A stretch of 64,000 nt of DNA from a virus. Lineage: Duplodnaviria > Heunggongvirae > Uroviricota > Caudoviricetes. The notes beneath the pieces are model-generated. The model was not told the DNA's origin. It searched no databases and was given only the letters and a program-made list of their open reading frames with translations. The position numbers and the translations under genes were made by a program. Below, one piece after another: positions 32,455 to 51,499 of this stretch (positions are counted from its first letter, which is position 1; each line of letters opens with the position of its first letter). The stretch spans positions 166,194 to 230,193 of the IMG/VR virus record IMGVR_UViG_3300040801_001810; one strand, 5' to 3'.

Positions 32455-33228
32455 TTGACAATGGCAGAGAAGGGAAAACTTCACGCCGTGCTCGCTGTCT
32501 ATGATGACAGAAAAAAGACCATGGCAAAAATTCTTGGTGAGACTATGAAGACACTCACCAGTCGACAGACTCACTTTATGGGAAGTTCAAAGACTTATCA
32601 AGCATTTGATGATAAAGATAAGGATATTCCCCGCAGTGAAATCAAACATGTAGTAACTACTGTTGGTGAGAAAGTAGATTACTTCGAAGACAGAGCTTCT
32701 AACTTTATTGATGTTGTACATCAAAAGGAAGTTGCCAACTGTGAAGCAAAAGGCACAATCACTATTGAGCGTGACGGGGAATCACCAATCGTTGTAGCTG
32801 AGAATGTACCAGTACAAGAACTTGTTCAACTCGAGAACTTGTTTGTACAATTCCGTTCACAGGTATACAATAACATCCCAACTCTGGATCCAAATAAGAA
32901 GTGGGATGAAGACGAGAATAATCCTGGTCATTACAGGACAGAAGCGTATAATACTGTTCGTACACGTAATCAGCCCAGAGTTATTCAGTTGGCTCCTGCT
33001 ACTAAGGAACACAAAGAACAAGCACAGATTGTCAATGAAGATATCCCTGTTGGTGAGTACACAATGGTTGATTTTTCAACGTGTATTAGTCCAAAGGATA
33101 AAGCAGACAAACTTGAGAAGATAGATGAACTCATTGAAGCAATTAAGAAGGCTCGCTCAAAGGCGAATCAGACTGAAGCTCCCAATGAGAAGATAGCTCA
33201 TAAGCTATTTAAGTTCATCAACAGCTAG
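32455..33228 (+). CDS. hypothetical protein
   Basis: 257-aa ORF with RBS aatggaggttgacaATG. Confidence 0.5.
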   Translation: MTMAEKGKLHAVLAVYDDRKKTMAKILGETMKTLTSRQTHFMGSSKTYQAFDDKDKDIPRSEIKHVVTTVGEKVDYFEDRASNFIDVVHQKEVANCEAKGTITIERDGESPIVVAENVPVQELVQLENLFVQFRSQVYNNIPTLDPNKKWDEDENNPGHYRTEAYNTVRTRNQPRVIQLAPATKEHKEQAQIVNEDIPVGEYTMVDFSTCISPKDKADKLEKIDELIEAIKKARSKANQTEAPNEKIAHKLFKFINS

Positions 33229-35444: not shown

Positions 35445-35792
35445 GTGGTGCAGCAGCTGCAAAAGGGTAGGATTAAGTTCCTACCCTTTTTTTATTTGGA
35501 GAATAACATGTTTTGGACAATACTTTTATTAATTGTAGGAGCAGGTTTAATAGCTCTTGCTATATGGGCTTCAAGTGAATACGAAGAAGAATTAGCAGCA
35601 CTTTTAGGAATAACAGCATTAGCATGTATTTTAATAGGACTCGGTCTATTGTTTAGTGGAAAAAAAGAATCATCAGTTACGAATACTAAGACAGAAGTAA
35701 TAGTTGATACAACCAAAACTTCTGTCTCTAATATAGATACAACAAAAGAAGAGAAAGATCGATGGCACGATAATAAGGAGTGGATGGAATGA
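35445..35792 (+). CDS. small membrane protein
   Basis: 115 aa with two TM helices. The internal ATG at ~35508 (after the terminator) is the likelier start. Confidence 0.4.
   Translation: MVQQLQKGRIKFLPFFYLENNMFWTILLLIVGAGLIALAIWASSEYEEELAALLGITALACILIGLGLLFSGKKESSVTNTKTEVIVDTTKTSVSNIDTTKEEKDRWHDNKEWME
35461..35496 (+). terminator. rho-independent terminator
   Basis: AAAGGGTAGG-ATTAAGTT-CCTACCCTTT followed by TTTTTAT. Confidence 0.55.
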
Positions 35793-36142
35793 TTGCTTGG
35801 ATACTAACGCTTCAATGGTGGTGGATAGTAGCCATAGTATTAACTATAATCCTATGGCTTATATTTGGTACTAATATTTATATTAGTAATAGAACATCAT
35901 ATAATAAAAAGCCATGGTTAGCAGCATTAATATATGCAGTTTTCTGTGGATTTCTTGGAGCAGCATCTATACCATTTGGAATAATATCTGCTGGTTATGG
36001 TATCCATTGGTTAAATGTAACTGATGGTGGAGAGAAACCCTATACAGCACCAGTAGTATCAAATAAACGTGACACTTTAATTGTAAAAGACACAGTTATA
36101 CTCAAAGAAGAAACTAAATCAAAAACTTGGATGGATAATTAA
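35780..36142 (+). CDS. membrane protein
   Basis: 120 aa with 3 TM helices. Confidence 0.45.
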   Translation: MDGMIAWILTLQWWWIVAIVLTIILWLIFGTNIYISNRTSYNKKPWLAALIYAVFCGFLGAASIPFGIISAGYGIHWLNVTDGGEKPYTAPVVSNKRDTLIVKDTVILKEETKSKTWMDN

Positions 36143-36162: not shown

Positions 36163-36921
36163 ATGAGTGACGAACAGTTGGTATCAACCGTAACTGCAAG
36201 CGGATTCAACTTTGGTCATGTACCAATCAATGATGATCTTAGCGACACTGAGTATATGATTGGAATGATAGCTGTTGATGCTTCTTCCTCTGTATCTTCA
36301 TTTGAAAAGGAAATGGAAGATTGTCTTTGTGATATTACAAAGATGAATCAAAAACTTCAGACTGCTAATAAAATTATGCAACGTGTTACGAAGTTTGGAA
36401 GCAACATATCTGAAATCCATGGTCTTCAACAGATAGCGAATCTTGATGCATCCACAGCATATAAAGGAAAAGTAAAACCAAGAGGAATGACTGCATTATA
36501 CGATGCAACTATGGATGCAATCGAATCATCAGAACAATTCTGTCGAGATCTTGTTGATAATGATTATGATGCAACTGCTTGTATTTTCATTATTACAGAT
36601 GGAGAAGAAAATAATTCAATCAAAGTTCGTGACCCAAAGATTATTAAAGATAAACTTGATAGTCTTCGAAAAGATGAAAAAGCATTTACTTCTCCTCCCA
36701 TCGTTGTACTAATTGGTGTTAATATTCAAGATAAATATGTCAAAGACTGTCTTGATTCTTTTTCAAAAGAAGCAGGTCTTGACAAATTCGTAGCAATTGA
36801 AGATGCTACTCCTTCCAGTCTCGGGAAGATTGCTGGACTCATTTCTCAGAGTTTCTCAAGCAAGTCCCAGAATGTTACTTCACAGAACATTCAGCAGACA
36901 CTCAGCCAAGTTACAATCTAA
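36163..36921 (+). CDS. von Willebrand factor type A (vWA) domain protein (TerY-like)
   Basis: MIDAS motif IAVDASSSVS (DxSxS), TALYDATMDAI, and ACIFIITDGEEN (DG) in correct order. RBS accaggagaatgaaATG. Confidence 0.6.
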   Translation: MSDEQLVSTVTASGFNFGHVPINDDLSDTEYMIGMIAVDASSSVSSFEKEMEDCLCDITKMNQKLQTANKIMQRVTKFGSNISEIHGLQQIANLDASTAYKGKVKPRGMTALYDATMDAIESSEQFCRDLVDNDYDATACIFIITDGEENNSIKVRDPKIIKDKLDSLRKDEKAFTSPPIVVLIGVNIQDKYVKDCLDSFSKEAGLDKFVAIEDATPSSLGKIAGLISQSFSSKSQNVTSQNIQQTLSQVTI

Positions 36922-36988
36922 AGCACGGACTTATCCTTTCACCGTGCTTGATAGGGGCGACAATTAAGATAATATATCTTGTCGCCCC
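36922..36988 (+). terminator. tandem hairpins (AGCACGG...CCGTGCT; GGGGCGACAA...TTGTCGCCCC) downstream of the vWA gene
   Basis: Read directly. The second hairpin is followed by CTTTACCCC rather than a T-run, so this may be a stabiliser or processing site. Confidence 0.4.
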
Positions 36989-37190
36989 GCCTTTACCCCT
37001 TAGATTCTTGGAGAAGCAATGATTATATTTTTACTACTATGGATAGCCATAGGACTAGCTTCTCTTTGTTATTGGATTACCAAACTTCAATTAGTAATTA
37101 AAAGATTTAGATCTATAACTATAGCAGCTATAGCTGGACCATTCACTAATTTTATAATTTGGTATTTACATACAACCGAGAGAGATAAAG

Positions 37191-38033
37191 ATGTTTAAAA
37201 CCGATTCATTCTTTTCTATTGGAGCATCTCATGATATATGTCAGGATTATTCCAGCGCATTAAGTACTGTAGAAGAAAATCCAAAAGGTATGATATTTAT
37301 ATCAGATGGATGTTCTATGATTGCTACTAATGATAATCATTGTGTTCCTCATCCTTCTAGTGATATAGCAGCTAGATTAGTTATACTGGCAGCTATGGCT
37401 TCAATGCTTGACTGTAAGTATATAACACAAGCAGTAGATCAAATGAAGGGTATACTTAAAGGATTTACAGAAGCTACGACTTTTGGTATGCTTGACGCTA
37501 CTCTTATTGGAGTGCGTTGGATTAATAAACCAGAAATACTATGGATCGGTGATGGAGCTATTTTAGTTGAAACCGAAAGAGAATATATTATTAAGTATCG
37601 AACATTCTCTCCAAATATGCCAGTCTATTGTTCTTACTTGGTTAAATATTTCCAAGGTGAAAAATATATTAAAACTGGCGTAGAAATGACCACCAATACA
37701 ATCATACTTGATAAGACATGGGATGTTATAGCTAGTGGTAATAAAGTAGAAAAGCTTAAGACGCTGGAAGATTCAATGTTCATAGATGCAGAAGAAGATA
37801 CAACTCATGATATAATATCTATCAGTGCTTTTTCTGACGGTATAGAAGATATATTATTGCCTTCAAAAGATAGGATGCCTATCATTGATGCTATTAAGAC
37901 TTTAGTATCATTTAAGCATACAAGTGGATTATTTGTACGTAGACGCATGAAAGCTCAGCTTAGACGTTGGGCAAGCGAAGGTATCTTCCCCAATGATGAC
38001 TTATCTATGGCAACCATAATACACAACGTCTAA
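37191..38033 (+). CDS. PP2C-family Ser/Thr phosphatase-like protein
   Basis: FSIGASHDICQDYS ... MIFISDGCSMIATND resembles the PP2C acidic metal-binding motifs (..D.G.....ED.. / ..V.DGMGG..). Divergent. Confidence 0.45.
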   Translation: MFKTDSFFSIGASHDICQDYSSALSTVEENPKGMIFISDGCSMIATNDNHCVPHPSSDIAARLVILAAMASMLDCKYITQAVDQMKGILKGFTEATTFGMLDATLIGVRWINKPEILWIGDGAILVETEREYIIKYRTFSPNMPVYCSYLVKYFQGEKYIKTGVEMTTNTIILDKTWDVIASGNKVEKLKTLEDSMFIDAEEDTTHDIISISAFSDGIEDILLPSKDRMPIIDAIKTLVSFKHTSGLFVRRRMKAQLRRWASEGIFPNDDLSMATIIHNV

Positions 38034-38092
38034 AGTATGACATTAAAACGTCATACATTTATCTTGTTGTAAATTATGTTTCAAAAGAAATT

Positions 38093-38323
38093 ATGATGAA
38101 ATTACTACTCAGAGAACGACCAAATAAACCAGTTAATCCAAAAGCTTATATTAACCATAGTTTTACATCTGATCAGAAGAAAATTATTTGGAACTGGTTT
38201 TATGAAAACGAAAGAAAACGAGCAGTAATATCCAAGGATACAATCATAAATTTGTTTCAACGGGCTAAGACTAAGAAAAAACCACAAATTGGAGCAAGTA
38301 TTATACTTCCAGGAAAAGAATGA
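38093..38323 (+). CDS. hypothetical basic protein
   Basis: 76-aa ORF. Confidence 0.35.
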   Translation: MMKLLLRERPNKPVNPKAYINHSFTSDQKKIIWNWFYENERKRAVISKDTIINLFQRAKTKKKPQIGASIILPGKE

Positions 38324-38473
38324 TGTTAGTAATATGTGATAATTATAAAACATGCAAAATGCGTCATGAATGTGGTGGAGCTAAACCACATGAAAGATGT
38401 AGTGAGTGTGGTAATTGCCCATTTGGGAAAGGCGTAGAATGTAATGAATACATTATATCAAAAGATAAAAAAT
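38321..38473 (+). CDS. small Cys-rich protein (~50 aa)
   Basis: MMLVICDNYKTCKMRHECGGAKPHERCSECGNCPFGKGVECNEY. Below track cutoff. Overlaps the next gene start. Confidence 0.3.
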
Positions 38474-38893
38474 GATATCATACGAGCAATGAAAGAACAC
38501 GCATTATTAGTAAGAAATGTTCTAAGATGCCTAGATGCTGAAATTCAACTGAAAGCTAAGGAAACTAAACAAGCTATCAATGATGATATGGTGATACAAG
38601 CAATAAAGCGAAATATCAAACAACGAAAAGCATCTATTATTGAGTTTGATAAGGGAAATAGAAATGATTTATCTAAGAAAGAAGAACTAGAAATAGTAGT
38701 ACTTCAACATTACTTGCCAGAAATGATGAATAAGGAAACAATTACATTAGCTGTAGAAGAAGCTATTAAGAATGTTGGGGCCATTACTTCTAAAGATATG
38801 GGCAAAGTAATGGGCGCATTAAAAGATCTTAAATCAAAAGCAGACATGAAATTAGTAAATCAAATAGTAAAAGAAAAACTTCAGTCAAACTAA
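38444..38893 (+). CDS. GatB/YqeY domain protein
   Basis: LYQKIKNDIIRAMKEHALLVRNVLRCLDAEIQ...SKKEELEIVVLQHYLPEMMNKETITLAVEEAIKNVGAITSKDMGKVMGALKDLKSKADMKLVNQIVKEKL matches the YqeY family pattern (..YLP..ms.eEl...v.e.i...ga....mGkvMg.....g.adg..v...v...L). Confidence 0.55.
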   Translation: MNTLYQKIKNDIIRAMKEHALLVRNVLRCLDAEIQLKAKETKQAINDDMVIQAIKRNIKQRKASIIEFDKGNRNDLSKKEELEIVVLQHYLPEMMNKETITLAVEEAIKNVGAITSKDMGKVMGALKDLKSKADMKLVNQIVKEKLQSN

Positions 38894-38909
38894 TTCTGAG
38901 GAGGATAAG

Positions 38910-39758
38910 ATGGCAAAAGTTGGATTGATCATTATCGATGGTCAAAAGGATTTCTGTGAAGGAGGCAAACTGGCTGTTACAGGAGGTAACGAATGTCTCG
39001 AAAAAGTATCAGATATGATTGATAGAATTGGAGATAAACTCTACAATATCGACCTAACATTTGATGCGCATCACCAACATCATATTGCTCATAGTTGTAT
39101 GTGGGTAGATAATGATGGCAATAATCCACCACCATTTACACTTATGACCCCTGCTGATGTCATTGGCACAGGAGCACAATATAGAGCAGCTAATATTGGA
39201 TACATGGCTACTCAGGAGAAATACATCCAAGAACTTGCGAAACGTAATGACTCAAGAGAAGCAATGGGACTTCTTCGTATTGAGCATTGTATTTGGCCTG
39301 AACATTGTCTTATTGGTACCGATGGTATGTCTCTTAATGAAAGGCTTCTTCAGTCAATCATGGCATGGGAGCTTAAAAAGAAGAGACCAACAAATAAGAC
39401 AACTAAAGGATCATTTATGTTTGCTGAGCATTTCTCAGTATTCAAGGCAGAGGTGCCAAATGATCTAGATCCAGCAACAAAGACAAATATGCATCTGATT
39501 AATAACTTGTCCAGTCTTGACATGTTGGCATGGGCTGGTCTTGCAAAAGATTATTGTCTCATGAATAGTTTCATTGATTTCATTCTCGAACTGAGTGGTG
39601 GAGATCAAAAGATTGCTGAAGATATTTCAAAGAAAATGGTATTTATCGAAGACGGTACCGCTTCTGTTGGTGCAGTACCTGCGCTTGCTGACAAGTTTGA
39701 TGAATTCCTTACTAAGTGGGGAGTTGAACGAGTTAAAGCAGAGGACTTTCTAAAATAA
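38910..39758 (+). CDS. pncA: nicotinamidase (isochorismatase-family, PncA-like)
   Basis: N-terminal GLIIIDGQKDFCEGGKLAVTGG equals the PncA signature (hhhhD.QNDFc.gG.LaV.g.). Later HCIWPEHCLIGTDG supplies the catalytic Cys region. RBS ctgaggaggataagATG. Confidence 0.65.
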   Translation: MAKVGLIIIDGQKDFCEGGKLAVTGGNECLEKVSDMIDRIGDKLYNIDLTFDAHHQHHIAHSCMWVDNDGNNPPPFTLMTPADVIGTGAQYRAANIGYMATQEKYIQELAKRNDSREAMGLLRIEHCIWPEHCLIGTDGMSLNERLLQSIMAWELKKKRPTNKTTKGSFMFAEHFSVFKAEVPNDLDPATKTNMHLINNLSSLDMLAWAGLAKDYCLMNSFIDFILELSGGDQKIAEDISKKMVFIEDGTASVGAVPALADKFDEFLTKWGVERVKAEDFLK

Positions 39759-39776
39759 TACGGAGAGGGAGGGGAA

Positions 39777-39815
39777 TAAAGGAGGGTAGTAGGATGACCC
39801 TCCTCCCCACTTTTA
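39777..39815 (+). terminator. hairpin GGAGGGT-AGTAGGATG-ACCCTCC followed by TCCCCACTTTTATT (terminator-like) overlapping the kinase track start
   Basis: Read directly. Suggests the kinase initiates at the ATG at 39818. Confidence 0.35.
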
Positions 39816-41488
39816 TTATGAAGATTACATTGAAAAATAAGAATCAATTCTTTACGCTAAAGCAAACAGATTATGTTGCAGGTGGTGGTGAAGGAAAAGT
39901 ATATCGTAGAGGATCAGTAGCATTTAAGATATACCATGATCCAAAGAAAATGATTCCTCTAGATAAGATAAATGCTCTTTGTAAACTTACACCAAAGAAT
40001 GTGCTAGCTCCTAGAGATATTTGTTTAAATAATCGTGATATACCAGTTGGTTTCACAATGGATTATGTAAGCGATACCGTATTTCTATGTTGGCTATTTA
40101 ATAGAGGATGGAGAATACAAAATAATGTAACTCCAGATATGATTACCAAACTCATCAATAAGATGAGAGAAACAACCATTACTCTTCATAATGAAAAATG
40201 TGTAGTAGGTGATTATAATGAAATGCAATTCCTCACAAATAAATCGTTTTCTGATGTTTACTTCTGTGATACTGATTCTTATCAAATTGGTAGGTTTGGC
40301 TGTACTGCTATTATGGATACTGTTAGAGACAGGATTCTTCCATTTGGTCAATTTAACGAAGGTAGCGATTGGTTTGCATTCGCAGTAGTTACTAGCCAAC
40401 TATTTACAGGCGTTCATCCTTATAAGGGAAGACACCCTGATTATACAAAAAGAGAAGTAAATCAACTTAAGCTTATGGATGAGAATATATCTATCTTCAA
40501 TCCATTAGTTACAATGCCTAAGCAAGCGCAGCCTCTCAATTCAATTCCACATAATATTAGAGATTGGTATGAAGAAGTACTTGAGCGTAAGTGGAGAGAC
40601 ATACCTCCTAAAATAGGAACTGGTGTACAATTTATTGTTATGCCAACAAGAGTATTATCATCTACAGATACATTTGAAGTAAAAGAAGCATTATCAATAC
40701 CAGAATTAATTAGAAAAATATGCCTAGTTAATGGCAAGCTATATATAGTTGGAGAAAATACACTCTATTTAAACGATAGAGCAATAACTAGTTTACCATT
40801 ATCAAGTGAACATTTTGTAGTTAAGTGTGAAGGAGATTTTAACCATATTAGATGTGAACAATATGGTAAAAATTTACATTTTTATCACTTACCAAATCCA
40901 AATCAAGAGATTTATTCGTGTTTAGCACATCATGTTACAACATATGATGGTGAATTATATATTATAAGAGATGGAAGTGCAATAAAATGCACTTTTAAGA
41001 AAATGTTCGGGAAAGTTATGTGTGATGAACAAAAAGTAGGAGATGTATTTACTCCTACTGTTAAAGCTTTTCCTGGTGTATTTGTTCAAGATATATTAGG
41101 TATACCATGGATTGGTGTACCAAATAACAATAGCTTTAATAATATACAGCTAAGTAAATTAATATATCATCGTATTATTGATGCTAAATATGAAGGCGGT
41201 ATATGCTTACTAATAACTGAGCATAAAGGTAAAACATATAGAACTATTGTATCTAATGATGGAGTCATTTCAGAAGAATGTGATAGTACAGAAAGAGCCA
41301 ACTTTACTACAGTTGGTTCAGTAGCCGCTATTATCATTGGAGACGAAGAACTAAGACTTAGAGTTGATGTTGGTACTAAGGTTATTCAAACTCCTCCTTT
41401 TGATAGTTCAATGACAATGTGTAGTGATGGAGCTAGAGTATTAGTTATTAATGGTAAGAAACTTTTACATATTTCAACAAAGCATTAA
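39794..41488 (+). CDS. eukaryotic-like Ser/Thr protein kinase (likely start 39818)
   Basis: Gly-rich loop AGGGEGKVYRRGS followed by VAFKIY (VAxK lysine). FCDTDSYQIG in the DFG-equivalent position. ~270-aa C-terminal extension of unknown function. Confidence 0.55.
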   Translation: MTLLPTFIMKITLKNKNQFFTLKQTDYVAGGGEGKVYRRGSVAFKIYHDPKKMIPLDKINALCKLTPKNVLAPRDICLNNRDIPVGFTMDYVSDTVFLCWLFNRGWRIQNNVTPDMITKLINKMRETTITLHNEKCVVGDYNEMQFLTNKSFSDVYFCDTDSYQIGRFGCTAIMDTVRDRILPFGQFNEGSDWFAFAVVTSQLFTGVHPYKGRHPDYTKREVNQLKLMDENISIFNPLVTMPKQAQPLNSIPHNIRDWYEEVLERKWRDIPPKIGTGVQFIVMPTRVLSSTDTFEVKEALSIPELIRKICLVNGKLYIVGENTLYLNDRAITSLPLSSEHFVVKCEGDFNHIRCEQYGKNLHFYHLPNPNQEIYSCLAHHVTTYDGELYIIRDGSAIKCTFKKMFGKVMCDEQKVGDVFTPTVKAFPGVFVQDILGIPWIGVPNNNSFNNIQLSKLIYHRIIDAKYEGGICLLITEHKGKTYRTIVSNDGVISEECDSTERANFTTVGSVAAIIIGDEELRLRVDVGTKVIQTPPFDSSMTMCSDGARVLVINGKKLLHISTKH

Positions 41489-41491: not shown

Positions 41492-41683
41492 ATGTTAGAT
41501 AAAATAATATTAACATCTGTATTAACAGCAATAATATGTATATCAGGTGGAGCAATTGGTGGTTCGATGGATAGAAGCGGAATCGACATTCCTGAATGGT
41601 GGTCATTAACTACAATGTATGGATTTTTAATAAGTCTAGTAACATTTATCGTGTGTATATATATTAACATTTGGATTAACTAA
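41492..41683 (+). CDS. small membrane protein
   Basis: 63 aa with two hydrophobic helices. Confidence 0.4.
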   Translation: MLDKIILTSVLTAIICISGGAIGGSMDRSGIDIPEWWSLTTMYGFLISLVTFIVCIYINIWIN

Positions 41684-41685: not shown

Positions 41686-42855
41686 ATGATTATCAAAAGC
41701 AAACTAGATATTGACCTTTATAAATTTAAAATGTTATATTTTCTATGGGCAACAGATCAATTAAATATTCCAGTAGTATATAGATTCTTTAATAGAACTC
41801 CTATTAAATTAGAACAATATGTATCTATGTCTGAAGTTCAAATGGAACTATCTCATTTTAGAAATAATTTTTATTCTGCTAAAGAACTTGATTATTTATG
41901 TACTTTATTTGAACCAGCATTTGTAGAATTTCTACATGCACAAAAAATTAGTAATGCAAAAGTAATACCAAAAACACATGGTTTTGGATTTGATATTGAA
42001 GGAACATATAGTAATGTTATACTTCATGAAACAGCTTTATTGTCTATAATTAATGAACTCTATTGTAAAAGAATACTAGAAGTAATTGATCCAGAAATTG
42101 AAGAACACTATAGAAAAACAAATTTAGCTAACTCTATAGATATGATTAAGAATACTAATATTCGCTTTGTTGAATTTGGTACAAGAAGAAGATTTAGTGC
42201 AGATTGGCAAGCTGAAGTATTAGGTCGTATTAGAAATCATATACCAGACAATTTAATTGGTACTAGTAATGTATATTTAGCTATGATGCAAGATGTTACT
42301 CCTATTGGAACAATTGCTCATGAAATGCATTCATTTTATGCTGCAACACAACCAACAGAAATACATAGCCAAAGTACTTTAGTAAAAGAATATACACGTA
42401 TATTTCCAGAAACATTCTTTCTAACAGATACATTCGGAACACAAGATTTTCTTGATAATTGTTGTGAAGAAGATGAACATCTATATGGATTAAGACAAGA
42501 TAGTGGATCCACAACAGCATGGATGAATGCACTTGAAGCAAAATTTCCAAGTTCATTACCAAGACCAAAAATAATGTTTAGTGATGGATTAACAGCTCCT
42601 AAAATAATTTCATTATATGATAATTATAGTTCAAGATGGCAATGTAATTTTGGTTGGGGAACTAATCTTACCAATAATGGAATAATTAAACCATTAAGTA
42701 TTGTAATGAAACTATGGAAAGCTGATAAGAAATATTGTATCAAACTAAGTGATAACCCAAATAAAGCTGTTGGACATCCTAAAGAAGTTGAAAAATATAA
42801 ATGGATATTTAACTATAATAAAAATATTACACATAAAACAAAGGTGGTTTATTAA
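41686..42855 (+). CDS. pncB: nicotinate phosphoribosyltransferase
   Basis: DLYKFKM (E. coli DAYKLHM), VEFGTRRRFS (E. coli MDFGTRRRFS), GTIAHEM (GTQAHEW), LRQDSGS (LRHDSGD), KLSDNPNKAVGHPKEV (KLSDSPGKTICHDKAF) line up along the whole length. Confidence 0.85.
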   Translation: MIIKSKLDIDLYKFKMLYFLWATDQLNIPVVYRFFNRTPIKLEQYVSMSEVQMELSHFRNNFYSAKELDYLCTLFEPAFVEFLHAQKISNAKVIPKTHGFGFDIEGTYSNVILHETALLSIINELYCKRILEVIDPEIEEHYRKTNLANSIDMIKNTNIRFVEFGTRRRFSADWQAEVLGRIRNHIPDNLIGTSNVYLAMMQDVTPIGTIAHEMHSFYAATQPTEIHSQSTLVKEYTRIFPETFFLTDTFGTQDFLDNCCEEDEHLYGLRQDSGSTTAWMNALEAKFPSSLPRPKIMFSDGLTAPKIISLYDNYSSRWQCNFGWGTNLTNNGIIKPLSIVMKLWKADKKYCIKLSDNPNKAVGHPKEVEKYKWIFNYNKNITHKTKVVY

Positions 42856-43103
42856 TGCCTAAGTATAAAATTACTGCTTCAGGAAAAGCTGTAGAAAATG
42901 CAGCAAAAGAAGTAGGAGATATGTTCAAAGAACTATTTAAAGATCTTCCACTACAATTAGAAGAAGTTGGTATTTCTCTTACAATTAATACTGAAAAAGA
43001 ATTTTCAGAAGAAGATATAACAACATTTACTTCTATTCTTGAAAAAGAAGCATTGGGACTTAAAGATCTAATTGAAACTAAAGTTACTGTGGAGAAATTA
43101 TGA
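42855..43103 (+). CDS. hypothetical protein between pncB and nadE
   Basis: 82-aa ORF with ATGA overlaps on both sides. Confidence 0.45.
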   Translation: MPKYKITASGKAVENAAKEVGDMFKELFKDLPLQLEEVGISLTINTEKEFSEEDITTFTSILEKEALGLKDLIETKVTVEKL

Positions 43104-43993
43104 ATTTACCAGTAGATCCTTACTTTGTAGAAAAAAATATTAAGCGTCAAACATGCAGTTATATAAGAAAACATAATATTAAATCATTGGTATTAGGTAT
43201 ATCTGGTGGACTTGATAGTGCTGTTGTTGCTTCTTTAATGGCTGGGGTTGCAGCAGAAGAATCAATACCACTTATTGGTATATCTCTTCCAAGCGATTCT
43301 AACCAAGATGAAGAAATAGCTAGAGCAGATGCAGTAGGGAAAGAATATTGTACTAAGTTTACTACATATGAAATTGATAATGATTTTGTAGAAGTATCAG
43401 ATAGTATTTACTTAATACTATCAAAAATTTTAGATGGAGAATTAACCGATTGGGAACAAAAGATTTTAGCTGGTAATATTAAAGCTAGATTAAGAATGAT
43501 TCTACTATTTGCTACAGCTGGTGCTACCAAAGGTATGGTACTATCTACTGATAATAAAACAGAAGAAATGCTTGGATTCTGGACACTTCATGGAGATGTA
43601 GGTAATTTTGGTCCTATACAAAATCTATGGAAATCAGAAGTATATGAACTTGCAAGATCTATATATGATCAAAGAGGAGTACAAGCATTAAAGGATTGTA
43701 TAGATGCTACTCCTACAGATGGACTAGGAATCACAAGTAGCGATCTAGATCAAATAGGTGTAGATAGTTATGATGAAGCTGATCGAAGAATACAAAACTA
43801 TATTAAACTAGCTACTAATCTTTTTGACGTTAAATCATTCTTTGATCAAGCAAAAGCTGTACAACAGATATGCGATTTACCTATTAATGATCCAGTTATT
43901 AATCGTATGGTTAATAGTGAATTTAAACGCAAAGATCCATATAACATACCAAGAGATCAACTATTTATTAAACCTAATCAAAGAATAGAATAG
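43100..43993 (+). CDS. nadE: NH3-dependent NAD+ synthetase
   Basis: KSLVLGISGGLDSAV (PP-loop SGGxDS; E. coli SLVLGISGGQDS), NIKARLRMILLFA (NEKARERM), VLSTDNKTEEMLGFWTLHGDVGNFGPIQ ([27 protein letters not shown]). Confidence 0.85.
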   Translation: MNLPVDPYFVEKNIKRQTCSYIRKHNIKSLVLGISGGLDSAVVASLMAGVAAEESIPLIGISLPSDSNQDEEIARADAVGKEYCTKFTTYEIDNDFVEVSDSIYLILSKILDGELTDWEQKILAGNIKARLRMILLFATAGATKGMVLSTDNKTEEMLGFWTLHGDVGNFGPIQNLWKSEVYELARSIYDQRGVQALKDCIDATPTDGLGITSSDLDQIGVDSYDEADRRIQNYIKLATNLFDVKSFFDQAKAVQQICDLPINDPVINRMVNSEFKRKDPYNIPRDQLFIKPNQRIE

Positions 43994-44021: not shown

Positions 44022-44097
44022 TGGGGTATAGTTCAGTGGCTAGAACGCCAGGTTTTGAGCCTGGATGTCGGGGGTTCAAATCCCTCTACCCCTTCCA
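44022..44097 (+). tRNA. tRNA-Gln (anticodon TTG), CCA encoded
   Basis: TGGGGTA-TA-GTTC-AGTGGCTA-GAAC-G-CCAGG-TTTTGAG-CCTGG-ATGTC-GGGGG-TTCAAAT-CCCTC-TACCCCT-T-CCA. U1:U72 mismatch at the top of the acceptor stem. Confidence 0.75.
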
Positions 44098-44103
44098 TTT
44101 ATT

Positions 44104-44676
44104 ATGAAAACAAAACTACTTACAAATATAAAAGAAGTAAAAGATGCTGCTCTTGATACAGTAGGATTAAAATCTACTAAAGAAGCTACATCTGATTGGC
44201 TTTATCAAATACTTTATGCTGAACATTCTCCTATCAGAAATATTATTATTAAAAGTACCTGGGAGAAAATTAAATATTGGGTAAGCGTTCACCTAACGAG
44301 ACACAAAATCGGAATAGAGCATTTTGTAAAGACACAGAGATCAGATAGAACTGGAGTAGATAGAGATAATCTACCTCAAGGAGCTGAAGTTCAGCACAGT
44401 ATAGTAGCTAATGCTCAAGCTATAATTAATATATCTCGTAAAAGAATGTGTAAACAAGCTTCTAAAGAAACAAGATTAGCTTGGCAAGAATTTTTAAAAA
44501 GTTTTTATTATGAATTACCAGAATTAAACTTTGTATGTGTTCCAGAATGTATGTACAGAGGATTTTGTCCTGAAATCAAATGTTGTGGTTATGTAAATAG
44601 TAATGATTACAAAGAACTCAGACAAGAATATATAGATAAATGTAAGGAGCTTCAATGCAAGCAAGACCATTTATAA
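44104..44676 (+). CDS. divergent ThyX-like (flavin-dependent thymidylate-synthase-like) protein, uncertain
   Basis: AEHSPIRNIIIKST...VHLTRHKIGIEHFVKTQRSDR loosely follows the ThyX pattern EH..f.F......SR...HQLVRHR..S..QeSQRY, but RHK replaces RHR and the SQRY tyrosine is absent. Confidence 0.3.
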   Translation: MKTKLLTNIKEVKDAALDTVGLKSTKEATSDWLYQILYAEHSPIRNIIIKSTWEKIKYWVSVHLTRHKIGIEHFVKTQRSDRTGVDRDNLPQGAEVQHSIVANAQAIINISRKRMCKQASKETRLAWQEFLKSFYYELPELNFVCVPECMYRGFCPEIKCCGYVNSNDYKELRQEYIDKCKELQCKQDHL

Positions 44677-44966
44677 AAGTAAACAATGGAAATATATTTA
44701 GAGATGTAGATGGAACAACTTATGTTAAAACTCCTAAATCAGCTACATCATCAGAAGGAATTTTTACTAATTGTGTAGTCTTAATAACTAATTCTAAAGA
44801 TCTCTCAAGAGGAGATCTAGTTAAAAAAGTAAAAGATGTCTACTGCGAAGTTATCGATGCAGCAGAAATAATTCAGCTCCAAGGAGATGAATCTTTGCAA
44901 GAAGCAAATAAAAGTATAATTCGAGGCGATAATGAGACAAGTTCGATTATCGAGGATAGAGACTAA
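44655..44966 (+). CDS. hypothetical protein
   Basis: 103-aa ORF. Confidence 0.4.
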   Translation: MQARPFIKVNNGNIFRDVDGTTYVKTPKSATSSEGIFTNCVVLITNSKDLSRGDLVKKVKDVYCEVIDAAEIIQLQGDESLQEANKSIIRGDNETSSIIEDRD

Positions 44967-45333
44967 TCCTAAACACGGAACATTTGGTGTATTGGTTGTA
45001 GATGGAGAAGCATTTTGTGTAACTCTTGAACCTTATTCTAGAAATAACGTAACATCTATATCAAGTATTAATGCTGGACAATACCTATGTACTGTAGTAG
45101 ATTCTCCACGATGGGGACACACATATACAGTTACTAATGTAGAAGGAAGAGATCTTATTAGAATACATGCTGGAAATATAGATGATAATACAGAAGGATG
45201 TATTATTATAGCTCAGTATTTCGGTAAGCTGCGTGGAAATAGAGCTGTACTTAACTCAGGAAATACACATAAAGCATTCATGAAATTAATGAATGATGAG
45301 CCATTTATATTAACAATTACTGAAAATTATTAA
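44932..45333 (+). CDS. hypothetical protein (possible His/Cys hydrolase-like small domain)
   Basis: 133 aa. IRIHAGNIDDNTEGCIII has a HxG...GC arrangement. Family not identified. Confidence 0.4.
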   Translation: MRQVRLSRIETNPKHGTFGVLVVDGEAFCVTLEPYSRNNVTSISSINAGQYLCTVVDSPRWGHTYTVTNVEGRDLIRIHAGNIDDNTEGCIIIAQYFGKLRGNRAVLNSGNTHKAFMKLMNDEPFILTITENY

Positions 45334-45348
45334 CTATACTATACAAAC

Positions 45349-45423
45349 CTGCGTGTAGCTCAGCTTGGTCAGAGTTCTGGTCTTGGAGTCCAGATGTCGG
45401 GGGTTCAAATCCCTCTGCGCAGA
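45349..45423 (+). tRNA. tRNA-Pro (anticodon TGG)
   Basis: CTGCGTG-TA-GCTC-AGCTTGGTCA-GAGT-T-CTGGT-CTTGGAG-TCCAG-ATGTC-GGGGG-TTCAAAT-CCCTC-TGCGCAG-A. Confidence 0.7.
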
Positions 45424-45427
45424 AATA

Positions 45428-45502
45428 CGGGATATAACTCAGTCTGGTCAGAGTGCTCGGTTTGGGGCCGAGTTGCCGCTGGTTCGAATCCAGCTATCCC
45501 GA
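45428..45502 (+). tRNA. second tRNA with anticodon TGG (Pro), different sequence
   Basis: CGGGATA-TA-ACTC-AGTCTGGTCA-GAGT-G-CTCGG-TTTGGGG-CCGAG-TTGCC-GCTGG-TTCGAAT-CCAGC-TATCCCG-A. Confidence 0.7.
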
Positions 45503-45508
45503 TAATAA

Positions 45509-45540
45509 GGAGATCACTTAAGTGTGGTCTCCTTTTTTAT
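45509..45540 (+). terminator. rho-independent terminator after the tRNA pair
   Basis: GGAGATCAC-TTAAGT-GTGGTCTCC followed by TTTTTTAT. Confidence 0.55.
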
Positions 45541-45551
45541 TTGAGGATTCC

Positions 45552-46853
45552 ATGAAAAAGAAATTAGTATTAGAAAAATATAATCATAATCCTTGTGGAG
45601 AAATAATGGAACCTAATAAAGAAAGTACTCTATATTCGTTTGCTATATATAATGGAAAAGATTTTACTGTAAGAAGCACAACAAATGATATAACATTAGC
45701 AAATTCTTTTGGCGGAACAAGAATAGAAAAAGAAAAAAGAGATAATAATGTTAATTACATGGACCTAATAGAACCAGTAATTCAAGAAGTAATTAGACAA
45801 CATATTAAGAATACACTTAGTAAATATGGAAAAGATTTAATAATAAAATATGGAACAGATAATCCTCTTGGAAAAGAAATAGGACAAGATAATGAAACAT
45901 TAGATAATCAAATAAATGATTTTTTAGATGGTCAATGGAATATTAAAAAATGGATTGTTATGAGCAGAAAATTTTGGCTTGAACCAAAATCAACTGAAGT
46001 ATCCTTTGAGCAAGCTTTACGTCAATTACGTATATCAAGAATACCAATGCTAATGCCAATAGCAGATATATATACTCATCATATAGAAGATAAAGATACT
46101 TCTTTTTATAGAAGACGAGGATATGCATCAGAATCACAAATAATTAATATTATACGAGACGGTCATCAAAATGATGATTATACATTAAGATTCATTAGAT
46201 ATGTTCATCCTATTACTCAACGATTAGTATTAACTGCATACAGTTTAGATGAATCAATACAAAATATAGATATATATAATGGAAAACCTATTAGTAGATC
46301 TATTAGAGAATTAATAGATTCAAATAAATTAGTAGCTTATTATGATTGGTATAAAGGAACAACAATTCGCCAAGGAGGACTATTTAGACTTCAATTGGTA
46401 CCAACAAGATCAGCAAAAGTTCCAACTAGAAAAAAGCTACAGAAAAAACGTGATGCTAAAATGTATCAAAGTGATATGCGTATTGTTGAAGATATAGTTG
46501 AAAAAGCTACCACTAGATTTTTAAAGACACGAATTCCAAAAATAGATAATAGTTTATTTAAGTTTAATTTTACTTATAACTATAGAACATATAGTTGCGC
46601 ATATAATAAAACTGTAACAACTATAAGTGAAAATCTTGCAATCTTTTTAAGTAAACTTCAAACTGAAAGAGGATATAAAGGACTATTATCAGAAATAAAA
46701 AAAGACATATTGTCTAATAATTTTATGAAAAGACAAAACATATTTCTAAAACATAAAGATCCAGATGTTAAATTTATGGGTGAATTTTTAGAATCAATCA
46801 AACCAAAAGGAGCAAGAAATGAATGTACCAAATCTGCCAGTAGCATCAAATGA
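45552..46853 (+). CDS. hypothetical protein (434 aa)
   Basis: ATG at 45552 (MKKKLVLEKY) after the terminator, in frame with track ORF 45522..46853. Confidence 0.5.
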   Translation: MKKKLVLEKYNHNPCGEIMEPNKESTLYSFAIYNGKDFTVRSTTNDITLANSFGGTRIEKEKRDNNVNYMDLIEPVIQEVIRQHIKNTLSKYGKDLIIKYGTDNPLGKEIGQDNETLDNQINDFLDGQWNIKKWIVMSRKFWLEPKSTEVSFEQALRQLRISRIPMLMPIADIYTHHIEDKDTSFYRRRGYASESQIINIIRDGHQNDDYTLRFIRYVHPITQRLVLTAYSLDESIQNIDIYNGKPISRSIRELIDSNKLVAYYDWYKGTTIRQGGLFRLQLVPTRSAKVPTRKKLQKKRDAKMYQSDMRIVEDIVEKATTRFLKTRIPKIDNSLFKFNFTYNYRTYSCAYNKTVTTISENLAIFLSKLQTERGYKGLLSEIKKDILSNNFMKRQNIFLKHKDPDVKFMGEFLESIKPKGARNECTKSASSIK

Positions 46854-47517
46854 ACAAATGAATAGAGAAGGAAATGCTCTTGTAGTACAAAGTGTTCAGC
46901 AACAACTTGGAATGAGTTCCGATGAAATTGCTAATGCTCGAGTAGCAGCGGTAGAAAATCATTTGCTTAAACTCCAAGATAGTATTTCAGACGAAATTTC
47001 AGGAATTGATTCATTAATAAAGGAAAAGAAAAAAGATCTTCATTTCAAAGATGATGAATGGAAATCAAAAGCAAAAGATGAATTTGAAGACAAATTTACA
47101 AAAGAACTAACAAAAGTATCTTTTGGAACAAAATTGGCTATTACTGTTAACTCATATAAAGTTACAAAAAAGGATAGCTCTACTGATCATGATCAAATCG
47201 AGCTTATTGCTTATCTAGCTAATATTGATGCCAAAAGTAGAGGATATGGTTCTGATGGAGTTAATATTGGAGCTAGCAAAGTAAAAATTCCAGCTACTGA
47301 TAAGAAAATTATTATTAAGCTTACTAAAGAAATTGAACCTTTGATTAGTAAAAAAGAAGAACTTCAACAAAAGCTTCTTAAAATTAGCGGAAAGCTAGCT
47401 AACCTTGATAGAGAAGAACGACAAGCTAAAGCATTGCTAGTTGCTTCAAAGGTTAACTCCTATGAAGGAGGAGCAGAATTTATGGAAGTAATCACTGGAA
47501 ATATGCCAGAGATTTAA
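46819..47517 (+). CDS. hypothetical coiled-coil protein
   Basis: 232-aa ORF. Confidence 0.45.
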   Translation: MNVPNLPVASNEQMNREGNALVVQSVQQQLGMSSDEIANARVAAVENHLLKLQDSISDEISGIDSLIKEKKKDLHFKDDEWKSKAKDEFEDKFTKELTKVSFGTKLAITVNSYKVTKKDSSTDHDQIELIAYLANIDAKSRGYGSDGVNIGASKVKIPATDKKIIIKLTKEIEPLISKKEELQQKLLKISGKLANLDREERQAKALLVASKVNSYEGGAEFMEVITGNMPEI

Positions 47518-47535
47518 TATTATAAAATCTAATAA

Positions 47536-47612
47536 GTACACTTCGTCTAATGCTCGGAAGGACGTCTAAGCACTTAAGCTCTACTTAGATATGTTGGTTC
47601 GAATCCAACAGT
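47536..47612 (+). pseudogene. degenerate tRNA-like element (good T-arm GTTGG-TTCGAAT-CCAAC and acceptor 3' strand, but imperfect acceptor 5' strand and 13-nt loops on the D- and anticodon-like arms)
   Basis: Read directly: GTACACT-TC-CGTC-(13)-GACG-T-CTAAG-(CACTTAAGCTCTA)-CTTAG-ATAT-GTTGG-TTCGAAT-CCAAC-AGTGGTC-T. Only 5/7 acceptor pairs. Confidence 0.3.
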
Positions 47613-47649
47613 GGTCTTATTAGTATAAATATATAATTAAGGACAAGAA

Positions 47650-47958
47650 ATGAAAAATAAAGGATTTACTTTAATTGAAGTCATAGTAGTAGCTATAATT
47701 ATATTAGTATTGGTATCAGTAGCTATTCCTATATTTCAAGGATATAAACAACTAGATGACACCATTACAATTGTTAATGGTAGAATCCAAAGTACTTCAA
47801 AAGAAGAAGTCATTGATAATACTGCAAAGTTTCTACATGATATTAAGAGCACTAAGAAACAGCTTAAACAAAAGCTGGATTCACTTGATGCAATTGAAAA
47901 CTTAGTAGCACCAACAGTAATAGAAACAGTATTTGTTAAGGATGATTGGGCAAGATGA
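47650..47958 (+). CDS. type IV pilin/pseudopilin-like protein (prepilin-type N-terminal domain)
   Basis: MKNKGFTLIEVIVVAIIILVLVSVAIPIF is a textbook class-III prepilin leader (G|FTLIE) followed by the hydrophobic alpha1 helix. Confidence 0.55.
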   Translation: MKNKGFTLIEVIVVAIIILVLVSVAIPIFQGYKQLDDTITIVNGRIQSTSKEEVIDNTAKFLHDIKSTKKQLKQKLDSLDAIENLVAPTVIETVFVKDDWAR

Positions 47959-48227
47959 AGAATAGATTAGAATTAGAAAGTTTTATAGAAATTGAATTTA
48001 AACTTTCTCCGACACAATATGTAGTTCAGCAAAATGGAAAAGGCATAGATATCTATGTTTATATAGCTATTAATAATACTCTTGTTCGAGTACGATTAAA
48101 TTCTCCTTATATGAATCATCTTACAGAACAAAGTGTTGGTTTAGCTATCAGTGGTGCTCTTGAAAAAATCAACTATGACTATAACAATGTTCAACAACCT
48201 GAAAATAATGTTGACATTTATCATTAA
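47946..48227 (+). CDS. hypothetical protein
   Basis: 93-aa ORF overlapping the pilin-like gene's end. Confidence 0.4.
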   Translation: MGKMKNRLELESFIEIEFKLSPTQYVVQQNGKGIDIYVYIAINNTLVRVRLNSPYMNHLTEQSVGLAISGALEKINYDYNNVQQPENNVDIYH

Positions 48228-48249
48228 ATAGACTATATTATATACACAT

Positions 48250-48326
48250 GCCGTTGTAACTCAGTTGGTCAGAGTAGCTGATTTGTAATCAGCCTGTCGG
48301 AGGTTCGACTCCTCTCAACGGCTCCA
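48250..48326 (+). tRNA. tRNA-Thr (anticodon TGT), CCA encoded
   Basis: GCCGTTG-TA-ACTC-AGTTGGTCA-GAGT-A-GCTGA-TTTGTAA-TCAGC-CTGTC-GGAGG-TTCGACT-CCTCT-CAACGGC-T-CCA. Confidence 0.8.
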
Positions 48327-48437
48327 TAAATTAAGGATTAACAATGTTCACATTAACTTACACATGTAAATGGTATAGAGTAGTCAAGAGATTATATCTC
48401 CTGGGGTGAACTTGTATTATCTAGTAACGTATACATA

Positions 48438-48466
48438 GGCAACCCCAAAAAGGTTGCCTTTTTTAT
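48438..48466 (+). terminator. rho-independent terminator
   Basis: GGCAACC-CCAAAAA-GGTTGCC followed by TTTTTTAT. Then TTGACA ... TATTAT promoter-like boxes before the 48507 gene. Confidence 0.55.
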
Positions 48467-48506
48467 TGCTCTTTGACATTATTAACAGACTAAGAACATA
48501 TTATAT

Positions 48507-49322
48507 ATGAAAAATAAGATTAAAGATATACTCACTATCTTAGAAAAAAAGCATGAAGTACAGATACTTTATGCTTGTGAATCAGGTAGTAGAGCATGGG
48601 GATTTGATTCAAAAGATAGTGATTGGGATATACGTTTTGTATATTTAAAAAGACCAAAAAATTACCTAACTGTATTCCCAAACGAACAATTGCATATAGA
48701 TCATAATAATAGTGAAGTATGTAAGAAATTTCTTGATTATGATTTAGATTTTGTCGGTTGGGATGTTAAAAAAGTATTATATCAGTTTAGTAAGGGAAAT
48801 CCAGATATGATTTCCTGGTTCTTCTCTCCAATAGTGTATAAATGTAATGATAATTTTCTTGGAACACTAAGAGTGCTTGGTAGTGAATTTTTTAAGAAAA
48901 AAGCAGCCTATTATCATTATATGCATATGGCTCAGAAAAATTACAATCAATACATAGCTAATCCTGAGACTAATAATATAAGAATTAAAAAGTACTTATA
49001 TGTTATACGCCCAATATTAGCGTGTATGTGGATTGAAACTTATGGTACTGAGCCACCAATGATAGTAGAAAATATTTATAATGATAGAGTTATTAATAAA
49101 TCATTATGTGATATGATGGTTTATATTCCTATAATTGAGTTAATTGCTGCTAAGAAAGCAGGAATTGAATTAGGCGAAGGCCCAAGAAGACCAATGTTAG
49201 ATGGATTTTGTGAAGGAATGATGAAGCATTATAAGACAATAGCTGATATAACTATTGTTAGTGAACCAGATTATAATAAACTTGATGACCTATTTAAACA
49301 TATTGTATCATTATACAACTAA
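48507..49322 (+). CDS. RlaP-type (pfam10127-like) nucleotidyltransferase
   Basis: LYACESGSRAWGFDSKDSDWDIRFVY matches the pol-beta-superfamily NTase signature (GS...G......SDxD) of the RlaP family associated with RNA repair/ligase operons. Confidence 0.5.
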   Translation: MKNKIKDILTILEKKHEVQILYACESGSRAWGFDSKDSDWDIRFVYLKRPKNYLTVFPNEQLHIDHNNSEVCKKFLDYDLDFVGWDVKKVLYQFSKGNPDMISWFFSPIVYKCNDNFLGTLRVLGSEFFKKKAAYYHYMHMAQKNYNQYIANPETNNIRIKKYLYVIRPILACMWIETYGTEPPMIVENIYNDRVINKSLCDMMVYIPIIELIAAKKAGIELGEGPRRPMLDGFCEGMMKHYKTIADITIVSEPDYNKLDDLFKHIVSLYN

Positions 49323-49332
49323 GGAGAAGAAC

Positions 49333-49779: not shown

Positions 49780-49780
49780 T

Positions 49781-49866
49781 GGGCTAGAGGCAGATACGGT
49801 TAGCTGCGGCGGACTGTAAATCCGTTCCCTCTGGGTGTGTAGGTTCGAATCCTACCTAGCCCACCA
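49781..49866 (+). tRNA. tRNA-Tyr (anticodon GTA), type II with long variable arm, CCA encoded
   Basis: GGGCTAG-AG-GCAG-ATACGGTTAG-CTGC-G-GCGGA-CTGTAAA-TCCGT-TCCCTCTGGGTGT-GTAGG-TTCGAAT-CCTAC-CTAGCCC-A-CCA. Confidence 0.8.
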
Positions 49867-50060
49867 ATTTTAAGCATACTGAGAATAGGACTCAAGTGCG
49901 ACCACTAGTGAGGATAAAGGTAAATCCTATTTGAACTTTATCCAATAAAACTGCCCCGCTTGTCCTGTACCTATCTAGTGATCGTGGGATGTTATAATAA
50001 CAATTGTATAACATGAATCAGGACAGTATGCTTAATTAATTTTAACTACTGGAGGAAACA

Positions 50061-50309: not shown

Positions 50310-50328
50310 CTTTAAAAGGATATAAACA

Positions 50329-51493: not shown

Positions 51494-51499
51494 CACTTT

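Follow-up and report, generated by a model that had tools for sequence, protein, structure and literature searches.

A phage-derived stretch of DNA of 64,000 nucleotides (IMG/VR record IMGVR_UViG_3300040801_001810; hereafter the window) encodes a vWA protein, a PP2C-like phosphatase and a Ser/Thr kinase with a predicted C-terminal β-propeller, and among their genes lies one for a nicotinamidase. These genes and their relatives make up a separate subfamily within the TerY-P (YegL-PphC-YegI) triads, and the genomic partner conserved alongside it, both in huge phages and in metagenome-assembled genomes (MAGs) of several bacterial phyla, is Preiss-Handler NAD+ salvage. We propose, with a probability of roughly 0.6, that the four-part module of nicotinamidase, vWA protein, PP2C phosphatase and propeller kinase represents a TerY-P-type phospho-switch subfamily that controls or senses this salvage. 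The triad type, the clustering of NAD genes in jumbo phages and the rebuilding of NAD+ as a counter-defence are already known; the propeller-kinase subfamily and its systematic coupling to nicotinamidase and NAD salvage appear to be new, as far as the literature is searchable.

The triad and its relationship to E. coli YegL-PphC-YegI

The kinase contains the glycine-rich and lysine-bearing motifs AGGGEGKV and VAFKIY. Its homologues (n = 353) are nearly all 555-570 residues long and align with it end to end, and G31, G32, K45, H132, D140, N142, D159, D161 and D192 vary little or not at all in alignments of 26, 115 and 155 sequences. A Pfam scan of the single kinase sequence gave no match, and PF00069 was assigned to about 40 of 120 listed homologues. 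The AlphaFold2 (AF2) model computed from the 115-sequence alignment has a pLDDT (predicted local distance difference test) score of 94.4 and a pTM (predicted template modelling) score of 0.91, and Foldseek finds its N-terminal half similar to the kinase domains of BRAF, IRAK4, GSK3 and CDK proteins (probability 1.0, E of about 1e-7). When the kinase alignment was compared with E. coli YegI using hhalign, the two matched with a probability of 98.3% (E 1.2e-14, 26% identity over 247 columns), with K45, D140 and D159-T160-D161 aligned to K39, D141 and the DSD motif of YegI, such that D161 falls on YegI D161. Sequence and profile searches of the PDB were uninformative, the kinase profile matching only kinase subdomain IX. 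From these sequence and model similarities, we assign the product as a putative Hanks-type Ser/Thr kinase of the YegI type. The catalytic residues that the sequence-only reading expected of it are present, the HRD Asp being D140 and the DFG Asp being D159 of D159-T-D161.

The window kinase departs from the canon in motif III (A61 for Glu), in motif VI (Q145 for Asn) and at the DFG triplet (D159-T-D161). The family consensus at the first two positions is Glu (60-90% of the sequences) and Asn (at least 90%), and distant members retain both, so that A61/Q145, a change at the periphery of the active site, is a trait of the clade to which the window belongs (P0002-P0014). YegI shares these deviations, having Asp where the motif III Glu and Ser where the motif VI Asn would be expected, and the two kinases further have in common GGEG-x-VY, KIYH, the D-x-N catalytic loop and a DxD replacing DFG. 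YegI is an active, Mn2+-preferring kinase despite the absent Glu and Asn and its DSD in place of DFG, and its K39D, D141N and DSD-to-DSG/DFG mutants are dead, with autophosphorylation abolished (Rajagopalan and Dworkin, bioRxiv 10.1101/819920). Since none of the residues essential in YegI (the Lys, the catalytic Asp and the DxD) has been lost and YegI is active with the same deviations, the window kinase is predicted to be catalytically competent; by analogy with YegI, its activity probably depends on Mn2+/Mg2+.

In the AF2 model, the region C-terminal to the kinase domain forms 28 β-strands arranged as seven four-stranded blades, and this β-propeller modelled alone has a pLDDT of 95.7. Foldseek searches with the propeller retrieved only generic propellers, BamB, Vps18, CNH and the WD40 domain of PALB2, with template modelling (TM) scores of about 0.45-0.5. 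Among 1.84 billion representative proteins, it is found only as the C-terminal part of kinases of about 560 residues, or as fragments (258 clusters, E≤1e-3), and the BFVD contains a single full-length analogue of the propeller kinase, from a metagenomic Myoviridae contig. We presume the propeller to be a sensor or docking domain of the kinase. The TerY-P kinases described in PMC11090510 end in a zinc ribbon or, for the defence type of Gao et al. 2020, in an OB fold. The window kinase has neither, a seven-bladed propeller being predicted at its C-terminus instead, and in this respect it departs from the TerY-P architecture that the sequence-only reading saw reproduced in the trio. It also differs from YegI, a 648-residue, two-pass membrane protein with another C-terminal half, in being a predicted soluble protein.

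The PP2C-like protein contains the motif IFISDGCS, and D19, D39, G40, D121, D216, G217, D269 and D270 are invariant in an alignment of 14 sequences, among them the metal-binding acidic residues D19, D39, D216, D269 and D270. The single sequence matches PF13672 at E=0.0043 and 17.1 bits, under the cut-off of 24 bits, and eight of ten homologues carry this family. A search of the PDB with the PP2C profile matched nothing. The PP2C alignment could be aligned to E. coli PphC with an hhalign probability of 83.6% (E 8e-6), placing D39 on D46 of PphC, the catalytic residue that was mutated in bioRxiv 10.1101/303594. PphC dephosphorylates YegI. These similarities point to a PphC-type, PP2C-like phosphatase. 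As judged from the alignments, all residues that have been proven essential in E. coli YegI and PphC are present in the kinase and the phosphatase.

The vWA protein carries the motifs VDASSSV (D39, S41, S43) and TDGEEN (T145-N150). The five positions of its metal ion-dependent adhesion site (MIDAS), D39, S41, S43, T110 and D146, are invariant in a 20-sequence alignment and still conserved across 122 non-redundant homologues, and the Ser-rich C-terminal tail, S228-x-S230-x-S232, is invariant in the same alignments. A Pfam scan of the single vWA sequence found no family; several of its 47 homologues carry PF00092/PF13519 (PF00092 in six of 20 scanned), and two have the Joint Genome Institute (JGI) product name YegL. 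Comparison of the alignment with E. coli YegL by hhalign gave a probability of 79.6% (E 1.5e-5) over 178 columns that include the Ser-rich tail. A search of the PDB with the vWA profile returned spurious matches to phycobilisome linkers and was uninformative. The protein is best described, from this remote homology, as a predicted TerY/YegL-type vWA protein with an intact MIDAS site.

The E. coli yegL-pphC-yegI locus thus comprises the same three families in the same vWA-PP2C-kinase order as the window, and YegL resembles the window vWA protein both in its MIDAS site and in its Ser-rich C-terminal tail, although the likeness to YegL and PphC is remote, at about 80% hhalign probability. The identification of the trio as vWA protein, PP2C phosphatase and Ser/Thr kinase by the sequence-only reading is borne out by the agreement among open reading frames (ORFs), motifs, Pfam families of homologues, hhalign comparisons and AF2 models, and its TerY-P-type architecture is supported by the homology and shared gene order with E. 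coli. The Pfam searches that it had suggested were informative only in part: single sequences mostly fail (the PP2C protein reaches 17 bits), whereas the homologues carry PF00069, PF00092/PF13519 and PF13672. NCBIfam contributed no assignment for the triad.

Our definition of TerY-P is second-hand, taken from PMC11090510 rather than from the original description. In PMC11090510, the TerY-P of Ter and CoCoNuT loci is likewise a modular cassette of vWA protein, PP2C phosphatase and kinase found on varied gene sets and thought to be a phosphorylation switch; TerY-P kinases accompany DNA/RNA restriction and tellurite-resistance genes, and TerY-P-like modules are stand-alone defence systems (citing Gao et al. 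2020). The window subfamily, by contrast, ends in the propeller and is accompanied by NAD-salvage genes: the conserved neighbours are PncA, PncB, NadE, NMNAT and NrtR, and an association with ter, restriction or defence-island genes was not found. One relative, L003 (k141_2421730, 229 kb; the related loci are numbered with the prefix L), carries a vWA-TerF-like gene (3304-4002) and a TerC gene (5885-6895) 1-5 kb upstream of its triad. No other direct link to ter genes was seen among the relatives, and both genes are absent from the window. PADLOC gave no match for any component of the triad; E. coli YegL, PphC and YegI, used as a control, were equally unmatched, so its silence is uninformative and does not speak against TerY-P.

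Conserved association with Preiss-Handler NAD+ salvage

The 282-residue protein encoded in the window between the PP2C and kinase genes, and not upstream of the vWA gene, matches NCBIfam PRK11609 at 1.2e-12, below the equivalog cut-off. Its sequence matches in the PDB are nicotinamidases/pyrazinamidases only, the best being PncA of M. tuberculosis (PDB identifier 3pl1, 1.3e-7). The catalytic Asp, Lys and Cys motifs, the metal-binding D-x-H...H and the WPxHC motif are at least 90% conserved across 58 members of the nicotinamidase family, and the product is accordingly described as a genuine nicotinamidase homologue and a predicted enzyme.

The gene content of related loci was determined using hidden Markov models from our own alignments, which were run against six-frame ORFs of all the loci, with NAD genes counted within 8 kb of the kinase gene. 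The loci comprise 80 IMG/VR viral loci and 80 loci from bacterial or archaeal assemblies, nearly all of the latter being MAGs and many lying on short contigs. A PP2C gene is present in all 80 viral loci, a vWA gene in 72, a nicotinamidase gene in 69, PncB in 27, NadE in 26, NMNAT in 18 and an NrtR-like/NUDIX gene in 15, and 75 have one or more NAD genes inside the 8 kb limit. The corresponding counts in the 80 genome loci are 56 (PP2C), 60 (vWA), 55 (nicotinamidase), 17 (PncB), 5 (NadE), 1 (NMNAT) and 24 (NrtR-like/NUDIX), and one or more NAD genes lie within 8 kb in 58. The nicotinamidase gene belongs to the module as a fourth conserved component.

The order vWA, PP2C and then kinase is observed in the window and in most of the 168 related loci. 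The commonest arrangement is PncA-vWA-PP2C-kinase (23 viral and 11 genomic loci), to which NrtR is added at the front in 13 genomic loci (NrtR-PncA-vWA-PP2C-kinase). NAD genes are often interleaved with the triad, as in PncA-vWA-PncB-PP2C-NMNAT-kinase (five loci) and PncA-vWA-PP2C-PncB-NadE-kinase. The window has the order vWA-PP2C-(YqeY)-PncA-kinase-PncB-NadE, which, given the recurrence of NAD genes in triad loci, is one more permutation and not an insertion event. The NAD-salvage genes, which the sequence-only reading regarded as inserted into the triad, are instead its conserved partners in phages and bacteria. YqeY, found near the kinase gene in one of the 80 viral loci, is the only true passenger and stands outside the conserved module. 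In the first homologue contexts (contigs of 143-509 kb), the triad is followed by genes for nicotinate phosphoribosyltransferase (NAPRTase) and NAD synthase, or is flanked by an NMNAT-like, PARP or Macro-domain gene.

With one genome considered per GTDB species, MAGs assigned to Armatimonadota, Acidobacteriota, Desulfobacterales, Myxococcota, Spirochaetota and further groups encode the full-length kinase; those of Armatimonadota include Capsulimonadaceae MAGs assembled as complete chromosomes. Pfam annotation of the neighbours in three bacterial loci, one each from Armatimonadota, Spirochaetota and Acidobacteriota, places an isochorismatase-family gene directly upstream of the vWA gene, and genes for NAD synthase, NAPRTase and NrtR (NUDIX and NrtR_WHD winged helix) flank the triad. 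The NrtR-type regulator, with NUDIX and winged-helix domains, directly flanks the cassette in 24 of the 80 genome loci, an arrangement reminiscent of the NrtR-regulated NAD operons of bacteria. To our knowledge, known NrtR regulons consist of NAD enzymes and transporters, and we found no description in the literature of a vWA-PP2C-kinase set within them. Unlike the window subfamily, the E. coli yegLKI locus is devoid of nicotinamidase and other NAD genes, so the link to NAD is specific to the propeller-kinase subfamily.

Some of the occurrences attributed to bacteria are mis-binned phage, since the 92,863-bp contig JALNZI010000006.1 of a 'Candidatus Omnitrophota' MAG (L009) is the same contig as the viral IMGVR_UViG_3300035208_001008 (L089). 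A second contig of this MAG (L012) also carries the cassette. Genes for PARP-like proteins (WGR and PARP catalytic domains) and Macro-domain proteins were observed within a few kb of the cassette at L005 (13795-15150), at L006 (10183-10695) and in four genome loci. PARP and Macro domains have NAD+-consuming and ADP-ribose-processing functions.

Preiss-Handler clusters (pncB, nadD, nadE) have already been reported in jumbo phages (PMC11662467), and the rebuilding of NAD+ by phages is known from the literature on NAD+ reconstitution pathways (NARP) to counter NAD+-depleting defences. The window resembles these cases in being a large phage sequence with clustered NAD+ synthesis genes. However, its route is that of PncA, PncB and NadE and not the enzyme sets of NARP1 (Adps and Namat), NARP2 (Nampt and Nmnat) or NARP3 (PnuC and an NadR-like enzyme), none of which uses a nicotinamidase or a kinase/phosphatase/vWA switch. 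No such kinase switch is mentioned in the papers on NARP and NAD-jumbo phages or in the survey of viral NAD+/ADPr systems by the Aravind group. Neither the propeller-fused kinase subfamily nor its systematic coupling to nicotinamidase and NAD salvage was found in the searchable literature, these papers and the CoCoNuT paper included, though the original TerY-P description may mention it.

The locus in the window and its neighbouring genes

The module lies in a co-directional run of ORFs on the + strand, between 34.2 and 44.0 kb of the window (Table 1), with the three ORFs of the triad at the positions where the sequence-only reading had put them.

Table 1. Genes and domains encoded in the 34.2-44.0 kb region of the window
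Feature	Position	Strand	Basis or remark
Membrane-anchored SPFH-like protein, 396 aa	34244-35434	+	Pfam: none; matches a crAss001 protein labelled SPFH/band7
Two small hydrophobic ORFs	35445-36142	+	None recovered in related loci
TerY/YegL-like vWA protein (predicted), 252 aa	36163-36921	+	MIDAS conservation, Pfam of homologues, hhalign to YegL
Small predicted membrane ORF between vWA and PP2C genes, 59 aa	37019-37198	+	Membership of module doubtful
PP2C-like Ser/Thr phosphatase (predicted; PphC-type, PF13672), 280 aa	37191-38033	+	Pfam of homologues, invariant Asp, hhalign to PphC
Two small ORFs between PP2C and YqeY genes, including membrane ORF region	38093-38475	+	No relatives found
YqeY/GatB-like protein	38444-38893	+	PF09424 at 3.5e-37
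Nicotinamidase (predicted; PncA-like, isochorismatase superfamily), 282 aa	38910-39758	+	PRK11609, PDB matches
Kinase (predicted), 564 aa	39794-41488	+	Hanks kinase domain and propeller
YegI-type Hanks Ser/Thr kinase domain (predicted), residues 1-270	39794-40603	+	Conservation, hhalign, AF2/Foldseek
C-terminal seven-bladed β-propeller (predicted), residues 294-564	40673-41488	+	AF2 models, Foldseek
Small membrane ORF, 63 aa	41492-41683	+	No relatives found
Nicotinate phosphoribosyltransferase (NAPRTase, PncB)	41686-42855	+	PF04095 at 4e-37, PF17767 at 1.1e-16
82-aa ORF between NAPRTase and NAD synthase genes		+	
NAD synthetase (NadE)	43100-43993	+	PF02540 at 1.6e-39

The window is AT-rich (G+C of about 30-40%) and carries 12 typed tRNA genes, spanning 44022-56496 and 9768-9841 and including a tandem tRNA-Pro(TGG) pair at 45349-45502, together with one untyped ARAGORN call (63688-63780) and two overlapping tmRNA-like calls (61162-61894). 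A tRNA nucleotidyltransferase gene is present at 52370-53758 (phrog_2244, 5.7e-73). The window had no match at the DNA level to INPHARED phages, and tblastn searches with the kinase recovered only three huge-phage records and one fragment. Relatives of the module occur on IMG/VR viral contigs and on huge-phage records of 460-595 kb, and the window is part of a large, tRNA-rich, phage-like genome that carries the module, in keeping with the phage setting given by the sequence-only reading.

The protein encoded directly before the small hydrophobic ORFs could plausibly be labelled SPFH. It has no Pfam or NCBIfam match and an exact-sequence look-up found nothing, but it matches phrog_11908, to which no function is assigned there, and shows 30% identity (E 7e-18) to a crAss001 protein deposited under the name of an SPFH-domain/band7-family protein. 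The sequence-only reading noted that the triad sits downstream of this gene and of several small membrane proteins, neighbours that are not conserved in the related loci. An SPFH-like homologue is found near the kinase in three of the 168 loci; a terminator-like hairpin (35461-35490; a 12-bp stem followed by a T run) directly after the SPFH-like gene separates it from what lies downstream; and upstream ORFs of similar size in L005 and L006 are unrelated to it. The gene was rejected as a member of the system, and its position beside the triad is incidental. A search of the related loci for the small membrane ORFs (35445-36142, 38093-38475, 41492-41683) yielded no homologues in any of them. The 59-aa ORF is 31% identical (E 3e-6, pairwise BLASTP) to an ORF at the same position in L001, and the search of all loci did not recover it.

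A weaker terminator-like hairpin occurs just after the PP2C gene (38035-38056); the total count of such hairpins is not above that of shuffled sequence, and a sigma-70 promoter scan likewise did not surpass the shuffled control. Shortly before the region, on its upstream side, a 257-aa protein (32455-33228) has a full-length match to DUF7873 (PF25283, 1.5e-62). On its downstream side, a ThyX-like ORF (44065-44676) matches PF02511 at 2.8e-6 in its C-terminal part only, over 53 residues; its listed start falls inside a tRNA-Gln gene (44022-44097), and the true start is probably further downstream. In the related locus L001, which lies on a 144-kb phage contig, RtcB is encoded by two ORFs (171 and 231 aa; 12287-14404) split by a LAGLIDADG endonuclease gene, which suggests an insertion of the intron or intein type in this RNA ligase gene.

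A proposed phospho-switch for NAD+ salvage, alternatives to it and its implications

Based on these sequence similarities and genomic associations, we envisage that the kinase and phosphatase would constitute a reversible switch, with the propeller taking the input from a protein partner or an NAD-related metabolite and the vWA protein perhaps acting, by virtue of the MIDAS site and the invariant Ser-rich tail, as an adaptor or a phospho-acceptor. What the switch would tune is the flux from nicotinamide to nicotinate, nicotinate mononucleotide (NaMN) and NAD+. In a phage, such a switch might secure the supply of NAD+ during infection and replication, and might allow NAD+ to be rebuilt from the nicotinamide set free when host defences cleave NAD+, following the logic established for NARP1-3. 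The NAD link would make more specific the suggestion of the sequence-only reading that the module may act in sensing and countering abortive infection. ADP-ribose, which arises from NAD+ cleavage, releases NrtR repressors, and the bacterial cassette would for this reason be expected to respond to NAD+ consumption. A more specific version of this proposal, which we put forward only tentatively, is that the module is a sensor-regulated device for rebuilding NAD+, whose propeller detects NAD+ breakdown (via ADP-ribose, nicotinamide, nicotinate or the state of a salvage enzyme) and whose switch then turns on nicotinamidase-driven salvage.

Several observations weigh against a switch dedicated to NAD+ salvage. 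Searches with two phage NMNAT queries found no NaMN adenylyltransferase in the 64 kb window, and its Preiss-Handler route would need a host enzyme or an NMNAT gene elsewhere in the genome. The closest relatives of the window phage (L001, L003 and L089) carry PncB and NadE, and no nicotinamidase was found in the flanking sequence retrieved for them. Gene order shared by related phages is in part a result of common descent, and the loci are not independent samples, though their kinases are only 27-44% identical to that of the window and their gene orders vary. The regulation could run in either direction, NAD metabolism being the output or the input of the switch, and the connection between the kinase and the NAD enzymes is one that we infer. 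Lastly, A61 and Q145 may confer reduced or altered kinase activity in the window clade.

These two residues are also the ground for supposing that the module is degenerate and non-catalytic, with the kinase reduced to a pseudokinase scaffold in a clade that has lost the αC Glu and the catalytic-loop Asn kept by most of the family. We consider this improbable, given that YegI lacks the same two residues and is nevertheless active, that the essential Lys, catalytic Asp and DxD are retained, and that members of the clade share 45-52% identity over the full-length kinase, which is free of frameshifts. An active kinase could instead be directed at the host, phosphorylating transcription, translation or RNA-decay factors during take-over, with the phosphatase and vWA protein as accessories and the NAD genes merely co-located. 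Phage Ser/Thr kinases with host targets are established, as exemplified by T7 gp0.7, which phosphorylates host proteins, and the gene is situated in a region of auxiliary metabolic genes and tRNA genes of a large phage. However, the same cassette is found in the same order, under NrtR, on the Capsulimonadaceae chromosome assemblies and in other bacteria, which argues for a self-contained cellular regulatory module that was acquired by phages, and the cognate phosphatase in every one of the 80 viral loci suggests reversible regulation rather than a one-way shut-off of the host. Host take-over is thus an unlikely role for the module.

A classical TerY-P anti-phage defence is a further alternative, in which the triad would sense a rival phage and set off a defence output, leading to superinfection exclusion. 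The composition and order of the triad match TerY-P, the stand-alone defence role of TerY-P-like modules noted above and the TerC and vWA-TerF-like genes of L003 are in accord with it, and huge phages do carry defence-like systems. Yet the kinase bears a predicted β-propeller and not an OB fold or zinc ribbon, the vicinity holds no conserved nuclease or other effector, and the conserved neighbours are NAD-salvage enzymes and NrtR. Such a defence role seems to us rather unlikely, and we favour the phospho-switch that controls or senses NAD+ salvage.

Single-sequence Pfam searches miss the vWA protein and the kinase of this module, and the homologues are mostly pre-annotated as 'hypothetical protein', which is of consequence for annotation. 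TerY-P-type triads are widespread and their inputs and outputs are unassigned, as is the physiological role of E. coli YegL-PphC-YegI. The one consistent and biochemically simple partner of the present subfamily, nicotinamidase-based salvage, offers a concrete place to seek a substrate and a signal. If the module were the sensor-regulated device described above, it would provide huge phages with an inducible means of countering immunity that depletes NAD+, and would add to NAD homeostasis in bacteria, under NrtR, a post-translational layer that had not been recognised before. The depletion and reconstitution of NAD+ is a central theme of the conflict between phages and bacteria, and a regulated Preiss-Handler route in huge phages, if true, would add to it a new pathway and its first signalling layer.

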